Below are positions 40,988 through 54,949 of a DNA stretch of 64,000 nucleotides, piece by piece. Under the pieces are notes generated by a model. The model was not told the DNA's origin and searched no databases. It was given only the letters and a program-made list of their open reading frames with translations. Position 1 is the first letter of the stretch, and each line of letters begins with the position of its first letter. Made by a program: the position numbers and the translations under genes. This DNA comes from Ostreococcus lucimarinus (Eukaryota), in assembly GCA_000092065.1 (NCBI GenBank), contig CP000586.1; one strand, 5' to 3'.

Positions 40988-43453
40988 ATGCGAAGCGCCG
41001 CGCCGCGATCGACCGAATCGATCGCTGGACGCGCGAGCGCCGGACGCGCGAGCGCGAGCGCGAGCGCGCGCGCGCGCGGACGATCGACGATTCGAAGCGA
41101 ACAATCCATCGATTGCGCGCGACCGATGCGACGCGCGGTGGCGCGCGCGGTGCGAACGACGCGGTGCGACGCGGCGTGGACGATCGGCGGGACGACGGCG
41201 AGTCGGAGTCGAGGGGGAGCGGCGCGCGAGGTGCGGACGGCGGCGAGCGGATGGCCCGGGGACGGCGCGAACGGGACGGGTGGCGCGGGCGACGCGAAGC
41301 CAAAGGGCGCGAGCGTGCAGTGGTTGCGCTCGGGACAAGCGCCGACGCCGGGATCTGGGGGCGCGCGACCGACGCAAGGGCAAGGGATGATGCGAGGGCA
41401 GCCGATGGCGCCGCCGGCGCAGCGGGGACAGCCGGGACCGCCGCCGCCGCCGAGAGGCGCGGCGCCGGCGAACGGCGGACGTCCGCCGGCGAACGGCGGG
41501 GCGCAGAGGCCGCAGAGCGCGGGACAGAAGCCGCAGGGTAACGTAAATGGAGGTTCGGCGACGACGGCGCATTTCAGCACGCCCGCGCCGGTGGTGCATC
41601 GATCGAAGCCGGACGCCGAGGGCGAGTACGCGCAGCAAGGAAGCACGGGACCGCCCGGTTTGCGCGACGCGCTGATGGATCACCGCATCGTGCTGCAGAG
41701 CTACACCCCGGGTCAGCATCGAATCATTTGCCCGACGTGCAACGGTGGGTCCACGGGCGAGCGCTCGCTGGCCGTGCACGTAGAGGATGATGGGAAGAGC
41801 GCGGCGTGGATGTGCCATCGAGCCAACTGCGAGTGGTCTGGTGGCACTGGTATGGATGGGCGCACGCGCGCGTCCAAGGGCGCGGACGGCGCGACATCGA
41901 ACAGACGTGTGGCGAAACCCAAGTTGCCGGCGCCGGAGGACTTGCAGCGCATCGGACCGGGAGAAATGACGGCGGCGGCGACGAAGTGGGCGGAGATGCT
42001 CAAGTCGCGCGGCATCTCGCTCGAAACCGCCGAACGCAACGGTTTGGCGGTACAGAGTGTGTACTCCCCCATCGCGAGTGGTTACGTCGATGCTTTGTGC
42101 TTTCCGTACATGCGTGACGGAGAGTTGATCAACATCAAGTACCGCGGTCCGGACAAGACGTTTTGGCAAGTCAAGGGCGCCGAAAAGATCTTGTACGGCT
42201 TGGACGACGTGACTGGTGAAGAGGAAGTTATTCTCGTCGAAGGCGAGATGGATAAACTGGCGCTCGAAGAGGCAGGCTTTAAGAATGTGGTCTCGGTTCC
42301 GGACGGTGCGCCGGGCAAAGTGAAGGACGGCCCGACGCCTGCGCCCGAGGAGGACAAAAAGTACGAGTACCTTTGGAATTGTCGCGCGCAGCTCGACACG
42401 ATTTCTCGATTCGTCATCGCCACCGATTCCGATGGGCCAGGTCAGGCGCTTTCGGAGGAGCTCGCGCGACGCCTCGGGAAAGAGCGCTGCTGGCGCGTCA
42501 CCTGGCCCGAAGGCTGCAAGGATGCCAACGAAGCGCTTCAGAAAGAGGGCGCCGACGTCGTGCGCGAGTGCCTCACCACGGCTGAGGGCTTCCCTCTGCG
42601 AGGATTGTTTAGATTTTCCGAATTCGCGCCCGAAATTGAGTCGTATTTCAACATGACCACCGCGAACGAGCTTCGTGGCGTGTCTACGGGGTGGCGCAAC
42701 ATCGACAACAACTACAGAATCGTCCCGGGCGAGCTCACAGTCGTCACCGGCGTGCCGAATAGCGGTAAGTCAGAGTGGGTGGATGCGTTGATGTGCAATT
42801 TAGCGGTTCAGCACGGCTGGTCGTTCGCGCTTTGTTCTCTCGAAAACAAAGTGCACGAACACGCGAGAAAGTTGGTGGAGAAATACGTGGGAGAACCTTG
42901 GTTCGAAGGAAAATATTCGAAAGCGCCGCGAATGAATCCGGATACGATGCGCTCCGGGATGAAGTGGTTGAACGAGCATTTCGTGCTCATTCGTCACGAA
43001 GACGACGAACTTCCTAGTGTGGATTGGATCTTAGGATTGGCGCGCGCCGCGGTGTTGCGTCACGGCATCCGTGGGCTCTTGATCGACCCTTACAACGAGC
43101 TTGATCACAAGCGTCCCACGGGCCAAACGGAAACCGAGTACGTGTCGCAAATGCTCACTCGAATCAAACGGTTCGCTCAGCACTACGACGTCCACGTCTG
43201 GTTTGTCGCCCACCCGCGTCAGTTACACAACTGGAAAGGCGAAGCCCCGGGTCTGTACGACATCTCCGGCTCGGCGCACTTCATCAACAAGTGCGACAAT
43301 GGCATCGTCGTCCACCGTAATCGCGACGAAAAGCTCGGATCGCTTCGTGAGGTGACGATTAACGTTCAAAAAGTTAGAAATAAAGTCGCTGGCTCTATCG
43401 GCGACCCAAAACTCGAGTACAACGTCTCCAACGGTCGTTACGTCGACATCTAG
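40988..43453 (+). CDS. TWINKLE: Twinkle-type organellar DNA primase-helicase: zinc-finger plus TOPRIM primase, then a DnaB/gp4-like helicase.
   Basis: The primase zinc finger is CPTCNGGSTGERSLAVH...WMCHRANCEWSGG. A TOPRIM-like region is ILVEGEMDKLALEEAGFKNVVSVPDGA. The helicase Walker A is TGVPNSGKSEWVDAL and DnaB-like motifs include HVWFVAHPRQ. The N-terminus is long, low-complexity and presequence-like. Confidence 0.8.
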   Translation: MRSAAPRSTESIAGRASAGRASASASARARGRSTIRSEQSIDCARPMRRAVARAVRTTRCDAAWTIGGTTASRSRGGAAREVRTAASGWPGDGANGTGGAGDAKPKGASVQWLRSGQAPTPGSGGARPTQGQGMMRGQPMAPPAQRGQPGPPPPPRGAAPANGGRPPANGGAQRPQSAGQKPQGNVNGGSATTAHFSTPAPVVHRSKPDAEGEYAQQGSTGPPGLRDALMDHRIVLQSYTPGQHRIICPTCNGGSTGERSLAVHVEDDGKSAAWMCHRANCEWSGGTGMDGRTRASKGADGATSNRRVAKPKLPAPEDLQRIGPGEMTAAATKWAEMLKSRGISLETAERNGLAVQSVYSPIASGYVDALCFPYMRDGELINIKYRGPDKTFWQVKGAEKILYGLDDVTGEEEVILVEGEMDKLALEEAGFKNVVSVPDGAPGKVKDGPTPAPEEDKKYEYLWNCRAQLDTISRFVIATDSDGPGQALSEELARRLGKERCWRVTWPEGCKDANEALQKEGADVVRECLTTAEGFPLRGLFRFSEFAPEIESYFNMTTANELRGVSTGWRNIDNNYRIVPGELTVVTGVPNSGKSEWVDALMCNLAVQHGWSFALCSLENKVHEHARKLVEKYVGEPWFEGKYSKAPRMNPDTMRSGMKWLNEHFVLIRHEDDELPSVDWILGLARAAVLRHGIRGLLIDPYNELDHKRPTGQTETEYVSQMLTRIKRFAQHYDVHVWFVAHPRQLHNWKGEAPGLYDISGSAHFINKCDNGIVVHRNRDEKLGSLREVTINVQKVRNKVAGSIGDPKLEYNVSNGRYVDI

Positions 43454-43775
43454 GCTCGCTTTTAATCGAATCGTTCTTCTCACCTTTACGACACAGTCTT
43501 CGCGCCGCGGCGTTCGACGTCCCGGCGTCACGACGACCGGCGCACATCGCCTCGAAAACGCACTCGAGAGCTCGTAAAATCGAAACGGGGATACACTTAT
43601 GTTATTCTTTGCATTAACATGCGCTAACCTGCGCTAGTCTCTCGCCGTCGAACTTTGCAGCCGTCGCCGCGGAACCCTCGCCTGAAGAACCACCACCGCC
43701 GCTCGCGTCCGCTACCCGCGTCGCGCGCGCTCGCGGTCGATCTCGAGCGACGCGCGTCTGACCTAATCGTCGTCC

Positions 43776-44012
43776 TCACAGGCTCACGCCCGGAAAGCAA
43801 TGCTCGAACGTCTGTTTCGGGTGTTTATTATCGCTGTGCTCCTTCAGCTTAATCGGCGCGAGCGTGCACATGAAGCTCGCGCGGCACACTTGACACACCG
43901 TCGACATCGCCTTGGCGTTCGCCGCGAGCTGCGACCCCGCCCCGGCTTTCTGCGCCTTCTCCATCGCCTTCTTCCGCGCCGTCGCCGATTTTTGCGCGTT
44001 CCCTCCGCCCAT
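43776..44012 (-). CDS. Small 78-aa 4F5/ZNF706-like C2H2 zinc-finger protein (plant At2g23090-like). Not in the supplied ORF track as a separate entry.
   Basis: [78 protein letters not shown]. The MGGGNAQKS start and the C.VC...F.C....K.H...KHPK finger are diagnostic of this small conserved family. The ATG is at 44012-44010 on the minus strand. Confidence 0.65.
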
Positions 44013-45267
44013 GATGCGTCGTGATGTGCGACCGGCGCCGCATTTCGCGCCTCGCCTCGCCGTCGACATGCGCGCGGTGCTCGAGCTGACGCGCAGACGC
44101 GCGAGAAACGCTCGTTTCGCGCGCGCGCGCGCCGTCGTCGGCGCGAGAGCGCGCGCGGCGGACGCGCAGGAGCTTCGGGACGACTCGAAGGGGGGCTCGA
44201 GCGTGGATAAAGCGACGTCGACGGCGGCGGAGGCGCGCGAGACGGCGCACACGCTCGAGGGATTTCGCGAGGCGCTGAGGCACGGACCGGGATTCGATGA
44301 CTTCGTGCGAGGCGACGTGGCGTACAGCGTGCCGGCGCCGAAGAGCCTGAAGGATAAGACGACGCGTAAGCCCGCGTGGCTGAAGCGCGAGGTGCCGGGG
44401 GGCGAGCGGTACACGGAGATAAAGTCCAAATTGCGCGAGCTGAAGCTGGCGACGGTGTGCGAGGAAGCGAAGTGCCCGAATTTGGGCGAGTGCTGGGGGG
44501 GCGGGGACGGGAAGACGGCGACGGCGACGATCATGATCATGGGCGACACGTGCACGCGAGGGTGCCGGTTTTGCGCGGTGAAGACGGCGAAGGCGCCGCC
44601 ACCTTTGGATAAGGATGAACCGGCGAACGTGAGCAAGGCAATCGCGGCGTGGGGATTGGATTACGTCGTGCTGACGAGCGTCGATCGGGACGATATCGAG
44701 GATCAAGGAGCGGGGCATTTTCGGGAGACGGTGCAACGTCTCAAGGCGTCTTGCGACGTCTTGGTCGAGGCGTTGACGCCGGATTTCAGGGGCGAGAAGC
44801 ACTTGGTCGAGCTCGTGGCTACTTCAGGCTTGGATGTTTTCGCGCACAACGTCGAGACGGTTCCCGAGCTTCAACGCGACGTCCGTGATCGACGGGCGAA
44901 CTGGGACCAATCCATCGAGGTTTTGAAGCACGCGAAAAAGTCGGGGGCGAAAATCACGAAGACGTCCATCATGCTTGGTCTCGGAGAGACGCATGAGCAA
45001 GTCGTCAACGCGCTGAAATTACTTCGTGAGGCTGACGTGGACGTTGTGACGTTTGGTCAGTACATGCGACCGACGAAGAAACACTTGGCAGTCGTCGAAT
45101 ACGTCACCCCGGAGGCGTTCAAGCGGTATCAGGAAATCGCCGAAGAAATGGGCTTTCTGTACGTCGCCTCCGGCGCAATGGTGCGATCGTCGTACAAGGC
45201 TGGCGAATTCTTTTTAGCGAATGTCATTAAACAGCGCAAAGCGAAGGAAGCTGCGGCAGCGAACTAA
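44011..45267 (+). CDS. LIPA: Lipoyl synthase (LipA/LIAS) with a presequence. An alternative start is at 44068.
   Basis: The two radical-SAM / auxiliary cluster motifs are [16 protein letters not shown] and [12 protein letters not shown]. LipA conservation runs to the C-terminus. The 43912 start of the ORF track is TTG; in-frame ATGs are at 44011 (MMRR...) and 44068 (MRAVLEL...). Confidence 0.85.
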
Positions 45268-45323
45268 TGTTTTATCGTTAGAACTTCTTGTACAATACGA
45301 GCGAAAGAGTTGCAGACCATTCA

Positions 45324-46232
45324 CTACACGCGACACCGCGCAATGTGACGAATCAGATCGGTTTCGTCGTCGACGAAATAAATTTCACGAATCTTCACCG
45401 TGAGAAGCAAGATTTTGAACGTGTAATTGATGTGCCAAGTCGACCACTCGCGCTCATTCGGCGCCCGGCCTTTGTAATTCGGGCCGTCGACGCTGCATTT
45501 CATGTACTTGAGCGTTCTTCCGTCGCCACGCGTGCTCGCGCCTCGCATGCGCGTCGACATGCGGCGAACGGATTCATTCAAACTCAATACAACTTCTTCT
45601 TTCCCTTTGAAATAATCACCGTGCACGTTCAAGTAATCTACGTCGTCGGAGAACAGCGCGCCGATTTCCTCCGCCGACGCCCACTCAAAGTCTTGATTTT
45701 GGATTGCGAATCCGAACGCTTTGGACAGCGCCTTTGGCCCTTTCGGCTCCTCGCGCGCGGTCAACCGCGTGGTAGCTTCCGACGAGGGTTTCGGCATCAG
45801 CGCGGGTAAGCTTTTCAAGTACGCAAACTTCTTCTCCGTCTCCTCGTCCAAACCTTGCTCGATCATAAACTTGGCCGCGTTGCGAACGGTTTCGTTCGAG
45901 GATTTCAACGCCTCCACGACCGTCGGATGAAGCTCATTCGACGGCTTCCTTTTCACGCGTCGTTTACCGTTCGTCCCATCGCGATCGTCACCGTCGACGC
46001 GCGTTCTCGTGAGTTCCAACGGATCAAACTTCGCCGCGACGTCCTCCGCGCGTTCGCGTTCGCCCTCGCCCTCGTCGAGCTCCTCCGCGGAGTCCCTCGT
46101 GGACGACCGACGCACTCGATCCTTCGTCGCGACGTCGCGTCTCGTCGACGCCGCGTCCGCGGCATCCGCGACGCGCTCGTTCGCCCCGTCGTCGTCCGCG
46201 ACCGCGCGTTCGACGCTCGCGCACGCCCCCAT
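45324..46232 (-). CDS. Hypothetical protein of 302 aa with an N-myristoylation-type start (MGACAS) and an acidic N-terminal half.
   Basis: This is the C-terminal part of the 563-aa ORF of the ORF track. The upstream part is antisense to the DUSP gene and Arg-rich junk. The first sensible ATG (MGACASVERAV...) is at 46232, confirmed as cat at 46230-46232. The C-terminal domain is non-repetitive (...DYLNVHGDYFKGKEEVVLSLNESVRRM...WHINYTFKILLLTVKIREIYFVDDETDLIRH). Confidence 0.45.
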   Translation of the reverse strand: MGACASVERAVADDDGANERVADAADAASTRRDVATKDRVRRSSTRDSAEELDEGEGERERAEDVAAKFDPLELTRTRVDGDDRDGTNGKRRVKRKPSNELHPTVVEALKSSNETVRNAAKFMIEQGLDEETEKKFAYLKSLPALMPKPSSEATTRLTAREEPKGPKALSKAFGFAIQNQDFEWASAEEIGALFSDDVDYLNVHGDYFKGKEEVVLSLNESVRRMSTRMRGASTRGDGRTLKYMKCSVDGPNYKGRAPNEREWSTWHINYTFKILLLTVKIREIYFVDDETDLIRHIARCRV

Positions 46233-46523
46233 CGCGCGCGTCGCGTCGCGCCCTCGCCGAACGTCCTTTCGTCTTCCGACCACCCTCGCGCGACGCGCGG
46301 CGCGCTCGAGCTCGCGTCGCGCGCGCGGGACGCCGCGAACGCGCGCGCGCGCGTTTCTATCGCGCGTCGCGCGCGCGCGGCGTCGAGAGAAACGCGCGCC
46401 TCGGGCGTGACGACGCGCGTCGGACGCGCTAACATCCAAGAACGTTCCGAAACGCTCGCGCGGCACTTCGCGACGCCCGCGCGCGGACGCGCGACCGCGT
46501 CGCGCGAACGCGTCGCGCGGTCG

Positions 46524-47258
46524 ATGCTGGCCGACGTCGCGCACGCGCGATCGGCGTACGACGCGATCAAGGCGCTCGTGCTCCGCGACGGCGCGCGTCG
46601 AGGCGACGGCGTGTCGAGGGTGTTGAGCCGCGGCACGCGCGGCGACGGCGACGGCGACGCGCGCGCGCGCGCGATGGATAAATCGACGCAAGACGCGAGA
46701 GTGAAGGCGCTGTTCGCCGCGCTGCTCACCGCGCGGTCGGTGAAGAACGACTCGCGCGCGGTGGAGGTGACGAAGGGCGTGTACATCGGGAGCGTGGGCG
46801 CGGCGAAAAACGTCGAGGCGCTGCGCGAGCTCGGCGTCACGCACGTGTTGACCGCGTGCGGTGGAATGCCGCGCGAGGGGTTCTATCCCGATGATTTCGA
46901 GTACGCCACGTGCGCGGTGGACGATAAGCCCGACGCCGCGATCGATGAACACTTTGACCGATGCTTCGACTTCATTCGCGACGCGCTCGCGCGAGACGGA
47001 AAGGTGTTGGTGCACTGCTTTCAGGGTAAGAGTCGAAGCGCGACGATTTGCGCCATGTACATGATGCGCGCGCTCGGCATGGATTTAGACGAGGCGATGA
47101 CCGCCATTCGTGAGGTGCGGCCGTGCGCGCAGCCGAACTCCGGGTTCATTCGAGCGTTGCGAGCGCTCGAGCGCTCGCTCGCCGCGCGCTCCGTTCCGAG
47201 CGGCGACGAGTCGCCGAAGAAGAAGACCAAGACGACCGCGCCGACGCGCGCGCGCTGA
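46524..47258 (+). CDS. Dual-specificity protein phosphatase (DUSP).
   Basis: The active site VHCFQGKSRSATICAMYMM matches the HCxxGxSRS P-loop. It is preceded by a ...VTKGVYIGSVGAAKNVEALRELGVTHVLT DUSP fold. The upstream part of the ORF-track ORF is Arg-rich antisense of the neighbouring gene. The first ATG is at 46524. Confidence 0.7.
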   Translation: MLADVAHARSAYDAIKALVLRDGARRGDGVSRVLSRGTRGDGDGDARARAMDKSTQDARVKALFAALLTARSVKNDSRAVEVTKGVYIGSVGAAKNVEALRELGVTHVLTACGGMPREGFYPDDFEYATCAVDDKPDAAIDEHFDRCFDFIRDALARDGKVLVHCFQGKSRSATICAMYMMRALGMDLDEAMTAIREVRPCAQPNSGFIRALRALERSLAARSVPSGDESPKKKTKTTAPTRAR

Positions 47259-47404: not shown

Positions 47405-50311
47405 ATGCACCGCCGCAGTGGCCGGCGCGCGCGGCGCGCGGTCGACATCGCGCTGGCAGGCGTCGCGGTACGAATGAAGTACGCGATGGCGACGCCCGAG
47501 CCGCCGCCGAACGCGCCGATACCGCGCACGGCGACGCTGAACGTCACCGATCGAGACCAATGGGACAGAATCTCGAGCGCGATCCTTTCCGGCGCCGGGC
47601 CGCGCGACGCAGGCGACGACGCGCTGAACGTGGAGCGGAAAGCGATGGCGAAAGAACTAGCGGCGATGCGTCGGTACGTCAAAGAGCTGGAGATCGAGCG
47701 GGAGGCGAGCGAGGAGCGGGCGGCGCAGAGAGAGCGGGACGCTCGGGACGCGGAGCAGCGCGCGAACGCGGGAGACGCGAGAAACGCGGAGAGGCTGGCT
47801 ATGAAGGAGCTCGAGATGACGCAGCGAGAGCGTGAACTGATCTTAAGAGAGGAGGAAGTCGACGCGCGGGCGCGGGCGACGGAGGACGCGGAGGTTTTTG
47901 AGGCGAATTTGAAGAGACGCGCGGCGCGTTTGGACGAACGCGAGCGAGCGATGCGAAACGCGAGGGATGATTTAGATTTACGGGACGATCAACTCACGGA
48001 AGCGATCGTCGGGCTCGAGCGCGAAAATGAGGCTGTGCGTCGCGAGACGGCGGCGATGGAACGCCGTCGCGAGGAGATTGTCCGCGAGCTCACGGATCGG
48101 GAGGTGGGCGTATTGAAGCGCGAGGAGAGCGCCACGGAACGTGAGCACGAGTTGCGCGTGGTGGAGGGGCGTTTAGGAGCGCTGAAGGAACGCGCTTCGG
48201 ACGAAGAGGCGCGGTTGAGGCGCGCGATAGAGCGCGCAGACGCGGCAGAGAAGCGAGAGGCGGACGTCGCCAGGCGACTTCACGAACTTGAAAACGACGA
48301 GCAGCGCGTGCGGACGAATTTGCGAGAGGTGCAGGCCGATGTGGGGCGCGCTGTCGACGTCAAGGCGAGCGCGCAACGCGAAACGGATGCGTTGAAGAAG
48401 GACGTCGAAATATTGCGCGGAGAACTCAGCGCGCTTACGGCTGAAAAGGCGCGACAAGTGCAATTCATCCAGAGCGTACGCTCCGATTTAGACGAGCGCG
48501 AGCGCGAAACTGCGGACGCGGCGGAAATCGCGGCGAACGAGTGCGAAGCCATCGCCGTTGCGTGGGACGAAATTGAAAGCATGCGCTCTGACTTGGAGCG
48601 TCAAGAAAAGATGATCGAAGACACGGCGGCACAGTTGGAAGAAAACGTCAAGGCGTTTGACCGCGACGCCACGGCGATGCGCGAGCGTCAGGAGGAAAAC
48701 GAGCGAAAGCTCGATGAGTTGCGCGAACACGAGGAGTTTTTACGTCGATTAGCGAGCGAAAACGAATCAAAGGCGCGCGAAGTCTCGACGCTCGAAGCGG
48801 AGATCGCCGAGCGACTCCGCGACGTGGAGGCGCGAGAGGCGGAAGTAGCCGAATGGAGGCCGCAAATTGACGAGTTCAAGTCAAAACGAGTGGACATCGA
48901 GGCGCACGCGGCAGCGATCGAAACAGCCAAGACGCAACTCGTCGAGCTGAGCGCTCGTGAGAAAGAGCTCGAAGAGAAAGAGTTACAGCTCGAGCGACGC
49001 GAAGAGGCGGCGGCTCGTCAGTTGAGCGCCGCGGCTGAAGCGGAGGTAATCTTGAATGAAGAAAACGCCAAGTTGGAGCAAAAGCTGCAAGAAATGGCGC
49101 CGAACTTGATCGCCGCTGAGCTCGAACGCGAAGTGGTCGAATTAAAGATGGAGCTCGAACGCACGAAAGCCGCAGCGAACGCCGTGATGGCGAACGCGGA
49201 CATGGAGCGACGACGCCGCGAGGAAGAAGAATCTTCCAGCGGCGCCGCCGCCGGCGACGCTGACCCTTTTGCCGCGGTCGGTGAGGAGAAAATTCGTCAA
49301 GAGGAGCGCGCGCGCGCAGAACAAGTCCTTGAGTCTAAGACGGCGGCGCTCTTACGCGCGAACGCGCTTCTAGATGCGAGAGAAAATGAGCTCGCCAAGC
49401 GCGAATTCGCGTTGACGGATGAGCTTGAACGACTCGAGCACGATACTGCGCGCCTGTTGACGCTACAAGACGAAGTGAACGAGCGAATGAAGGACGTGCT
49501 CGAGGTCGAGATGCACGGCATCGGCGGTGAGCCGCGCAAACGGCGAGAAGACGCGTCGGACTACGCGACCGTCGCCAACGCCGAGCGTCACGCGGCGACC
49601 ATTCTCGCCGACGCGGAGGAGGTGCGCCGAACCGCGCGCGCCCACCTCGAGGCCGCTACGGCTACCGCACAAGCCGCGCGGGCGATCAACGACGCATGCG
49701 AGTCCAGCGAAAGAGAAGGCGCGGCGACGATAAAGCGCGTATCCGCCGTCGTGGCCTCGGCAATTCAGGCGGCGAAGCGACAGGGCGACGAATTACGCGC
49801 CCGCCGCGAGCAAGCCTCTACGTCCGTCGTCGCGCTCGATCGCGACGCCAAGATTGATTTACTCGACGCTCAACTCGAGTACGTCGCCAAGGCCAAGGCT
49901 GACCTCGACCGCCGCGAGGCGTCCATACGAAGCGACTCGTTCGCCGCGGCGTCTCGCCGTCGCGCCGACGCCGCGACGTCCAACGACGAGCTCTCCTCCC
50001 GAGCCCGAACCGCGCGCCTTCGCGAGGAAGTCCACGGCGCCGCCGAGCATCTTCTCGAGTGTTTGTCTCAGGGCGAGACCGCGCTCGCGCGAGCCGACGC
50101 CGTGCTCCACGCGCCTCGCGTCTCCGAGCTCCGTCTCAAGCTCGCCGGATTACTCGGCGTCGCCGATCGTCTCGCGCGCGCGCGCGTCGACGTCTCCGGC
50201 GACGACACCGAAGAGGACATTTTATCCGATCGTCTCGCCGCGTTAGAGCACGAGATTCGTCGCGCCGGCGGTTGGTTCGAGGACTTGCGTCGCGCCGTTC
50301 GCGAGGTGTAA
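47405..50311 (+). CDS. Long coiled-coil protein, extremely Glu/Arg/Ala-rich. Family unknown.
   Basis: 968-aa ATG ORF made of heptad-like ERE/ARE repeats: LEIEREASEERAAQRERDARDAEQRA, ELEEKELQLERREEAAARQL. There are no globular motifs. Most apparent antisense ORFs on the opposite strand are artefacts of its composition. Confidence 0.55.
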   Translation: MHRRSGRRARRAVDIALAGVAVRMKYAMATPEPPPNAPIPRTATLNVTDRDQWDRISSAILSGAGPRDAGDDALNVERKAMAKELAAMRRYVKELEIEREASEERAAQRERDARDAEQRANAGDARNAERLAMKELEMTQRERELILREEEVDARARATEDAEVFEANLKRRAARLDERERAMRNARDDLDLRDDQLTEAIVGLERENEAVRRETAAMERRREEIVRELTDREVGVLKREESATEREHELRVVEGRLGALKERASDEEARLRRAIERADAAEKREADVARRLHELENDEQRVRTNLREVQADVGRAVDVKASAQRETDALKKDVEILRGELSALTAEKARQVQFIQSVRSDLDERERETADAAEIAANECEAIAVAWDEIESMRSDLERQEKMIEDTAAQLEENVKAFDRDATAMRERQEENERKLDELREHEEFLRRLASENESKAREVSTLEAEIAERLRDVEAREAEVAEWRPQIDEFKSKRVDIEAHAAAIETAKTQLVELSAREKELEEKELQLERREEAAARQLSAAAEAEVILNEENAKLEQKLQEMAPNLIAAELEREVVELKMELERTKAAANAVMANADMERRRREEEESSSGAAAGDADPFAAVGEEKIRQEERARAEQVLESKTAALLRANALLDARENELAKREFALTDELERLEHDTARLLTLQDEVNERMKDVLEVEMHGIGGEPRKRREDASDYATVANAERHAATILADAEEVRRTARAHLEAATATAQAARAINDACESSEREGAATIKRVSAVVASAIQAAKRQGDELRARREQASTSVVALDRDAKIDLLDAQLEYVAKAKADLDRREASIRSDSFAAASRRRADAATSNDELSSRARTARLREEVHGAAEHLLECLSQGETALARADAVLHAPRVSELRLKLAGLLGVADRLARARVDVSGDDTEEDILSDRLAALEHEIRRAGGWFEDLRRAVREV

Positions 50312-54773: not shown

Positions 54774-54949
54774 TGACTCCGGTGGGGTTCGAACCCACGC
54801 CCTTTCGGACCAGAATGTTACGTTGCGATTGTTCTCGCATGGTACGAAAGCGGGCGCGCGCGCGACTCGCGTCGCGCGCGTTGTTTTTCCCGTAGTTCCT
54901 CCTCGTGTTCTCCTTAATCTGGCGCCTTAGACCACTCGGCCACAGAGTC
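54774..54949 (-). tRNA. tRNA-Leu(AAG): tRNA-Leu (anticodon AAG), class II long variable arm, interrupted by a ~96-nt intron at the canonical 37/38 position.
   Basis: On the minus strand the 5' exon is GACTCTG-TG-GCCGAGTGGTCTAAGGC-G-CCAGA-TTAAGG and the 3' exon is T-TCTGG-TCCGAAAGGGC-GTGGG-TTCGAAC-CCCAC-CGGAGTC-A. The acceptor stem has 7 pairs (6 Watson-Crick, 1 G-U). The A box is TGGCCGAGTGG and the B box is GGTTCGAACCC. The discriminator is A. A TTTT run lies ~20 nt downstream. The exons are plus 54949..54912 and 54815..54774. Confidence 0.75.

Follow-up and report, generated by a model that had tools for sequence, protein, structure and literature searches.

The 64,000-nucleotide (nt) stretch of Ostreococcus lucimarinus contig CP000586.1 analyzed here (GenBank assembly GCA_000092065.1; referred to below as the window) carries on its minus strand a small zinc-finger gene that lies head-to-head with the gene for mitochondrial lipoyl synthase (LipA). 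The explanation that best accounts for the observations taken together, and in which we have good confidence, is that an already annotated At2g23090-like gene and a LipA gene starting at 44068 are separated by a spacer that has shrunk to 55 bp and probably acts as a minimal bidirectional promoter, and that the overlap of start codons at 44010–44013 derives from a short palindrome. The elements concerned are the following.

43776–44012, minus strand: single-exon coding sequence (CDS) of a microprotein of 78 amino acids (aa), 78 codons plus TGA, At2g23090-like with a SERF-like N-terminus and a zinc finger, identical to XP_001418532.1 / A4RZ85.

44068–45267, plus strand: CDS of mitochondrial lipoyl synthase, 399 aa plus stop, an exact match to XP_001418286.1 / UniProt A4RZ86.

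44013–44067, no strand assigned: spacer between the two start codons, 55 bp, 70% GC, without a TATA-like element.

A preliminary description of this DNA had reported a minus-strand protein with the N-terminus MGGGNAQKS and a single zinc finger, hidden within a 286-aa Arg-rich open reading frame (ORF) and unlisted as a gene. Translation of 43776–44012 on the minus strand gave exactly this protein (MGGGNAQKS...CFPGVSL, 78 codons followed by a TGA stop), and Pfam and PDB entry 1WVK supported both the protein and its finger. The surrounding 286-aa mechanical ORF was likewise found, at 43776–44636 on the minus strand with a TTG start; it lies antisense to the N-terminal part of lipoyl synthase and holds the 78-aa frame at its 3′ end. 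The gene had not been missed, since an exact-sequence look-up returned it as XP_001418532.1 / ABO96825.1 / UniProt A4RZ85, a 'predicted protein' of O. lucimarinus CCE9901 deposited beside LipA A4RZ86. The term 'unlisted' thus holds solely for the mechanical ORF track and not for the NCBI and UniProt annotation.

The 286-aa ORF is a plain artefact of GC-rich sequence antisense to LipA, and the shorter frame inside it might by the same token be a chance open frame in GC-rich DNA antisense or adjacent to LipA, with no gene present. The search results leave this explanation practically no room. In Pfam the protein matched zf-met2 (PF12907) with 61.2 bits against a cut-off of 27 (E 1e-16; residues 40–75, covering profile positions 2–37 of 38) and SERF-like_N (PF04419, the 4F5 family) with 28.3 bits against a cut-off of 22.3 (E 3.5e-6; residues 3–36). 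The sole solved-structure match was 1WVK, the nuclear magnetic resonance (NMR) structure of At2g23090 (phmmer E 6.6e-23, query 2–76 against chain 10–84). A search of 5.8 billion proteins found 62 homologues at E≤1e-3; these include annotated proteins from Micromonas commoda, M. pusilla, Chlorella variabilis and brown algae as well as several MMETSP transcriptome ORFs, the latter all from other algae. Matches of this kind exceed chance by many orders of magnitude. The chance explanation is further refuted by constraint on the coding sequence. The ratio of nonsynonymous to synonymous substitution (dN/dS) was 0.08–0.43, far under 1, at dS 0.5–1.3 (Ostreococcus-type orthologue comparisons, n=5, each of exactly 78 codons), a length of exactly 78 aa is kept in these five orthologues and in both Micromonas proteins, and the zinc ligands are invariant. 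GC content at codon positions 1/2/3 was 0.54/0.49/0.82, the pattern typical of real genes in O. lucimarinus. The start codon has the context atcATGg, and M1 was aligned in 31/31 homologues (alignment A3); the other versions of the microprotein found in metagenome contigs, 62 aa from Met17 and 97 aa from an ATG at 44069, come from non-eukaryotic gene callers. As judged from sequence comparison, the minus-strand ORF is a genuine, single-exon, already annotated nuclear gene.

The position of the LipA start decides whether the two coding sequences overlap. One further feature is needed here.

44011–44067, plus strand: optional in-frame 19-codon LipA extension, part of the 418-aa version given by prokaryote-type callers; its start context, cccATGa, is weak.

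The LipA protein contains LIAS_N (PF16881, 72.4 bits) and Radical_SAM (PF04055, 90.4 bits) domains, and the reference record A4RZ86 ('Lipoyl synthase, mitochondrial', 399 aa) corresponds to a start at the ATG at 44068. The frame is open from 43912 through 44068, with in-frame ATGs at 44011, 44014 and 44068. Translation from 44011 or 44014 would yield a 418- or 417-aa precursor; in the 418/417-aa case the coding sequences would share 2 nt head-to-head, and the 5′ ends of the mRNAs would necessarily be complementary. Several observations are compatible with this. The extension is Arg-rich, as a mitochondrial presequence could be, the three in-frame ATGs mean that any transcription start site (TSS) would still give a functional precursor, and the JGI/IMG and Logan gene callers report 418 aa on many contigs. 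Those callers, however, use prokaryote-type first-start or longest-ORF logic, whereas the eukaryotic reference annotation starts at 44068; metagenome contigs also carry a 451-aa version (from a TTG at 43912) alongside the 418-aa one (from 44011), both from non-eukaryotic callers, and the header of the 'Tara' LipA entry is that of a gene caller, not transcript evidence.

Comparison with related lineages favours one of the two starts. In contigs L007, L014 and L015 the stretch from the small gene to the LipA ATG contains in-frame stops, and the called LipA lengths (398, 386 and 404 aa) fit the 399-aa model; among the lineages compared, the extension frame is open solely in O. lucimarinus. The distance from the start to the motif GPGFDDF (GPSFDDF in L015) is about 68–76 residues in the four lineages when 44068 is used and about 92 from 44011, by residue count. 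Because this distance agrees across four lineages only from 44068, and because the relatives have upstream stops, the evolutionarily homologous LipA start is, on this comparison, 44068, as in the reference annotation. When the 54 nt at 44014–44067 (18 codons, 70% GC) were shuffled, the frame was stop-free in 77% of trials, and the open 19-codon extension upstream of LipA is likely due to chance (P about 0.77). With a weak context at 44011 (C at −3) in addition, we consider the 418- or 417-aa precursor decidedly improbable.

It had also been noted that the first ATGs of the two genes physically overlap and that, if LipA starts at the next ATG, 55 bp separate the start codons. Both observations are correct in every coordinate. 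The plus strand reads CATGATG at 44010–44016, so that the minus-strand ATG occupies 44012–44010 and plus-strand ATGs lie at 44011–44013 and 44014–44016, and the interval between the small-gene ATG and the ATG at 44068 is 44013–44067. The significance of the overlap is weakened by the LipA start at 44068 in the comparison above, by an open frame that is expected by chance and by the palindromic context. The antisense ATG exists because a C at −1 of the small-gene start makes the palindrome CATG, in which the second ATG is offset by one base. A C occupies −1 in 10/27 gene starts of the window (a crude census), and an antisense ATG has a 1 in 3 chance of falling in its neighbour's frame. Here both real starts lie in CATG palindromes (44010–44013 and 44067–44070), and each antisense ATG is in frame with the opposite gene; the second palindrome supplies the minus-strand ATG at 44069, in frame with the small gene. 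The palindromes at both starts thus explain the origin of the 97-aa and 418-aa versions in metagenome calls. In L007 the small-gene start is CCATGG, and the antisense frame reaches a stop after a couple of dozen codons. To the extent that sequence alone can tell, the overlap of start codons is a by-product of a CATG palindrome combined with a stop-free GC-rich stretch.

The 55-bp spacer must hold both 5′ untranslated regions (UTRs), a shared divergent core promoter, or both. It is identical in two O. lucimarinus-type metagenome contigs (L001 and L003), and alignment of the inter-ATG region with L007, L014 and L015 succeeded in the coding flanks only and revealed no conserved promoter motif. 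Rfam, run on the whole window, and ARAGORN gave no match in or close to the locus, and the spacer is therefore not accounted for by a structured RNA. A scan of 43400–44400 for bacterial-type promoters and terminators gave one sigma-70-like match (43552–43580) and no terminators, and is irrelevant for a eukaryotic nuclear locus. Two features read from the sequence bear on where transcription could begin.

44024–44089, plus strand: out-of-frame upstream ATG opening a 21-codon upstream ORF that overlaps the 44068 start.

43849–44043, minus strand: out-of-frame upstream ATG at 44043 opening a 64-codon ORF that overlaps the small CDS.

Under a scanning model of initiation, the ATG at 44043 would confine the small-gene TSS to 44013–44042 (5′ UTR ≤30 nt), and the ATG at 44024 would confine the LipA TSS to 44027–44067 (5′ UTR ≤41 nt) if LipA starts at 44068. 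These ranges would permit either no 5′ overlap or one of ≤16 nt. Most likely, transcription of both genes would start inside or at the edges of the spacer and produce very short 5′ UTRs, and the upstream promoter sequence of each gene would lie within the transcribed region of the other. The arrangement would then plausibly constitute a minimal bidirectional promoter, in which the two mRNAs might overlap by as much as 16 nt at their 5′ ends. Were LipA transcribed from upstream of 44011, the first two AUGs would be in frame and would give a slightly longer precursor, and the locus would tolerate either arrangement. The preliminary description had the mRNAs 'almost certainly' overlapping at their 5′ ends, which is too strong, as the upstream ATGs fit very short 5′ UTRs that overlap barely or not at all equally well.

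Three considerations weigh against our reading of the locus. The bounds presuppose that initiation is by scanning and that ATGs in moderate context are recognized efficiently, and they would loosen under leaky scanning; the expression of both genes and the positions of their TSSs are predicted from sequence; and the frame at 44011–44068 is open in all O. lucimarinus-type contigs, so that a 418-aa precursor may be made.

The two genes might instead use separate promoters, each inside the coding region of the other, with mRNAs that overlap by tens to hundreds of nt at their 5′ ends, in which case antisense pairing or transcriptional interference would couple or oppose their expression. A gap of just 55 bp for two core promoters lends itself to such an arrangement, and overlapping UTRs are common enough in O. 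tauri to concatenate genes in RNA-seq assemblies (PMC4378021). Against this, the out-of-frame ATG and its 64-codon ORF, which spans the real start, would be present in any small-gene mRNA that begins above 44043, and with a start above 44069 the protein would be longer by 19 N-terminal aa found in no homologue. A LipA mRNA starting upstream of 44024 would carry the out-of-frame upstream ORF overlapping 44068. The overlaps documented in Micromonas are convergent, 3′–3′ (PMC4815162). The spacer also varies three- to nine-fold among lineages without conserved sequence, which speaks against a conserved regulatory overlap. We regard extensive overlap as unlikely, with perhaps a minor chance of being correct, and prefer short UTRs flanking a minimal bidirectional promoter. 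A bolder proposal is that the 55-bp TATA-less spacer, together with sequence within both coding regions, is among the smallest natural bidirectional promoters in a free-living eukaryote, or else that 5′-overlapping mRNAs mechanistically couple the expression of a mitochondrial lipoylation enzyme to that of a SERF/zinc-finger microprotein, a coupling that would have arisen in O. lucimarinus by collapse of a 170–480 bp spacer. This proposal we find doubtful, somewhat more so than extensive overlap.

With divergent orientation and start codons 55 bp apart, the two genes fall within the <1 kb limit by which bidirectional pairs are defined. They form the tightest of seven divergent pairs delimited in the window; the six other head-to-head gaps are 97, 105, 195, 197, 569 and 647 bp, and the smallest gaps between genes in tandem or tail-to-tail arrangement are 27, 28 and −11 bp. 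These values come from a rough census based on GC content at third codon positions (GC3) and are indicative only, as the census picked up neither the 78-aa gene itself nor a 968-aa Glu/Arg/Ala-rich gene and made some first-ATG models too long, for example that of a phosphatase gene at 45927. In O. tauri 2288 bidirectional transcript pairs have been described (PMC4035068), and the mean intergenic distance in Micromonas is 167–211 nt (PMC4815162). The 55-bp spacer is therefore genuine and, although short even by the standards of this genome, belongs to a type already described in Mamiellophyceae.

The same head-to-head pair was found in L007/L008, L014 and L015, where the small proteins are 88%, 81% and 74% identical to that of O. 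lucimarinus, and also in L013, a frameshift-ridden fifth contig. At least four further Ostreococcus-type lineages keep its orientation, and the sequence comparison indicates that the pair is ancestral in the Ostreococcus-type lineages sampled. The ATG-to-ATG spacer is 172 bp in L007, 170 bp in L014 and 479 bp in L015, and O. lucimarinus would have shrunk it from 170–479 bp to 55 bp, consistent with genome-wide compaction. In both Micromonas genomes no LipA gene was present within 4 kb of the small gene. A Twinkle-like primase-helicase gene, in contrast, adjoins the small gene tail-to-tail in the Ostreococcus-type loci as well as in the two Micromonas genomes. A functional link between LipA and the microprotein was rejected on these grounds; since Micromonas lacks the adjacency, it represents lineage-level synteny and gives no evidence of such a link. 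The small gene of Ostreococcus has no intron, whereas those of Micromonas (L011:4001–4326 in M. commoda and L012:4001–4378 in M. pusilla) have one intron at a shared site, of 89 and 141 nt, apparently in phase 1 within the Gly26 codon, where the SERF-like half meets the GSQL motif. No NCBI-sourced member from Ostreococcus tauri, O. mediterraneus or Bathycoccus prasinos was among the homologues, despite close metagenomic relatives, and the orthologue may be unannotated in the reference genomes of these species, the one setting in which the preliminary description's remark on small genes escaping gene callers might still apply.

The microprotein divides into two parts.

43905–44006, minus strand: SERF-like (4F5) N-terminal segment, Lys/Ala-rich, residues 3–36 (PF04419, 28.3 bits).

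43788–43895, minus strand: zf-met2 zinc-binding domain, residues 40–75 (PF12907, 61.2 bits).

Downstream of the predicted zinc ligands C40, C43, H59 and H64 (C-X2-C-X15-H-X4-H) lies the motif C72-F73-P74. A 16-sequence alignment (A1) shows no variation in the four ligand columns, and the MGGGNAQKS N-terminus and C72-F73-P74 are nearly invariant in its algal and plant sequences. An AlphaFold model built on 31 sequences had a mean predicted local distance difference test (pLDDT) score of 76.9. Residues 1–30 were predicted as helix at low confidence (pLDDT 55–67), and the C-terminal part as a β-β-α unit (strands 37–39 and 46–48, helix 53–63; pLDDT 87–92). The top PDB match of the model in Foldseek was 1WVK, followed by weak matches to UBZ and C2H2 fingers; the title of 1WVK describes At2g23090 as 'partially disordered', and the N-terminal segment is Lys/Arg/Ala-rich in composition. 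The model thus suggests that the SERF-like half is probably disordered and that the C-terminal half forms one predicted zinc-binding β-β-α finger. The SERF-like_N match is marginal in sister algal proteins, at 21.6 bits in Micromonas commoda (P0041) and 21.5 bits in Chlorella (P0040) against the cut-off of 22.3, and P0047 gave no match. Homologues from green algae, brown algae and plants keep the MGGGNAQKS start almost unchanged. With Gly2, the small residues after it and Lys8, this start resembles an N-myristoylation motif, though it could just as well correspond to 'RGNQ' of SERF. A link to the small zinc-finger proteins named for methylene-blue sensitivity (MBS) in Chlamydomonas and Arabidopsis was also considered; a literature search yielded reviews and no sequence for comparison, and we claim no relationship.

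The searched literature demonstrates no function for the plant and algal branch and mentions At2g23090 only incidentally: as an NMR target, as a stable-mRNA control with a half-life of over 24 h (PMC4911357), and among the candidate partners pulled down with Arabidopsis KEOPS (PMC11077089). By analogy with animal relatives, the algal microprotein would most likely be a small nucleic-acid-binding protein. In human ZNF706, which combines a SERF-like N-terminus with one finger, G-quadruplex binding is mediated chiefly by the N-terminus (PMC11077067). The N-terminal half of the algal protein, basic and probably disordered, might likewise make the main contacts with structured nucleic acids, for example G-quadruplex RNA or DNA, as in ZNF706 and SERF2, with the finger adding affinity or specificity; that binding through this tail is the core activity of the algal protein we rate at roughly even chances. 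The microprotein could in this way modulate RNA/protein condensation or aggregation, by analogy with ZNF706 and SERF2 (PMC11077067). Alternatively, it might act on DNA in the manner of Drosophila Simba1/2 and ZNF706, both of which bind DNA (PMC12749969). A point against any such assignment is that the animal proteins on which it leans share 28% identity with the algal one and differ from it in finger spacing.

The remaining observations concern other parts of the window.

40988–43453, plus strand: Twinkle-like primase-helicase, first-ATG ORF, with Pfam Toprim_4 and DnaB_C domains.

This first-ATG ORF encodes 821 aa with a long Arg/Ala/Gly/Pro-rich N-terminal region, and metagenome callers give 597–682 aa for the gene in O. 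lucimarinus-type contigs, so its true start is uncertain. Between LipA and a dual-specificity phosphatase (DSPc) gene, at 45322–47258, caller models disagree and the first-ATG models would overlap head-to-head; a minus-strand gene there, called at 197 or 302 aa, seems to begin MGACASV, which resembles an N-myristoylation/palmitoylation signal, and the DSPc phosphatase is called at 443 or 244 aa. The 968-aa Glu/Arg/Ala-rich ORF (47405–50311, plus strand), coiled-coil-like as judged by composition, accounts for an AT skew of 0.30 at 48–50 kb, and its absence from the GC3 census means that composition-based coding filters fail on such genes. At 54774–54949 on the minus strand Rfam reported a tRNA (RF00005, 42.2 bits, 176 nt) where ARAGORN made no call; the segment reads like a tRNA-Leu (loop ...cagaTTAAGGa..., anticodon AAG) with an intron of about 100 nt just 3′ of the anticodon.

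The gene, its family (with a solved Arabidopsis structure) and the compact head-to-head organization of Ostreococcus are all already known. What the locus illustrates is that GC-rich eukaryotic DNA leads mechanical ORF tracks and prokaryote-type callers astray, here with a 286-aa shadow ORF, LipA calls of 418 and 451 aa and microprotein calls of 62 and 97 aa. The divergent pair with its 55-bp spacer is a candidate minimal bidirectional promoter for Ostreococcus engineering and a test case for TSS placement where almost no intergenic DNA remains. A streamlined alga with an apparently single-copy gene would also be a reasonable system in which to ask whether the G-quadruplex and RNA binding of ZNF706 and SERF2 extends to the plant and algal branch.

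Among known arrangements, the locus most resembles the compact head-to-head pairs of Mamiellophyceae, with which it shares divergent orientation and a spacer far under 1 kb; it differs in degree, with 55 bp here against 97–647 bp elsewhere in the window and a spacer three to nine times shorter than that of the same pair in relatives. Among proteins, the closest counterpart of the microprotein is At2g23090 (UniProt O64818; PDB 1WVK). The two share the 78-aa length class, an identical GGGNAQKSA N-terminus, the C-X2-C-X15-H-X4-H spacing, the C-terminal CFP and the combination of a probably disordered SERF-like half with a finger, and differ by ordinary substitutions only, with no structural difference. 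Because of the 57% identity, the same finger, the same MGGGNAQKS start and the same CFP, the sequence places the 78-aa protein as an orthologue-level member of the plant and algal At2g23090-like (zf-met2) branch.

The relationship to human ZNF706 is, by the same comparisons, real but distant and not orthologue-level. Human ZNF706 and Drosophila Simba1/2 are likewise microproteins of about 76–78 aa, and ZNF706, like the algal protein, has SERF-like_N above the Pfam cut-off and a single Cys2His2 finger at the matching position (algal C40/C43, ZNF706 C41/C44) ending in KHPK. Its finger, with zinc ligands Cys41, Cys44, His57 and His62 (PMC11077067), has the spacing C-X2-C-X12-H-X4-H of zf-met, three residues shorter than the algal one, and it starts MARGQQK rather than MGGGNAQK and lacks the CFP motif. 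In Pfam, human ZNF706 (Q9Y5V0, verified by exact look-up) scored above the cut-off for SERF-like_N and zf-met and gave no zf-met2 match, and the algal finger gave no match to zf-met (PF12874) at E≤0.01. The two proteins are 28% identical in alignment A1 (BLASTP 38% over 40 residues, E 9e-6 in a single comparison), while identity within the ZNF706 group is 64% from fly to human (PMC12749969). The family label 'At2g23090/ZNF706' in the preliminary description is accordingly apt for At2g23090 and at superfamily level, but not for ZNF706 as an orthologue, given the identity, finger spacing and Pfam model. G-quadruplex binding, effects on aggregation and transcriptional roles are established for the animal proteins only. 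SERF1/2 and MOAG-4 (4F5, PF04419) resemble the algal protein in its N-terminal 36 residues, which match SERF-like_N, and differ from it in having no zinc finger.

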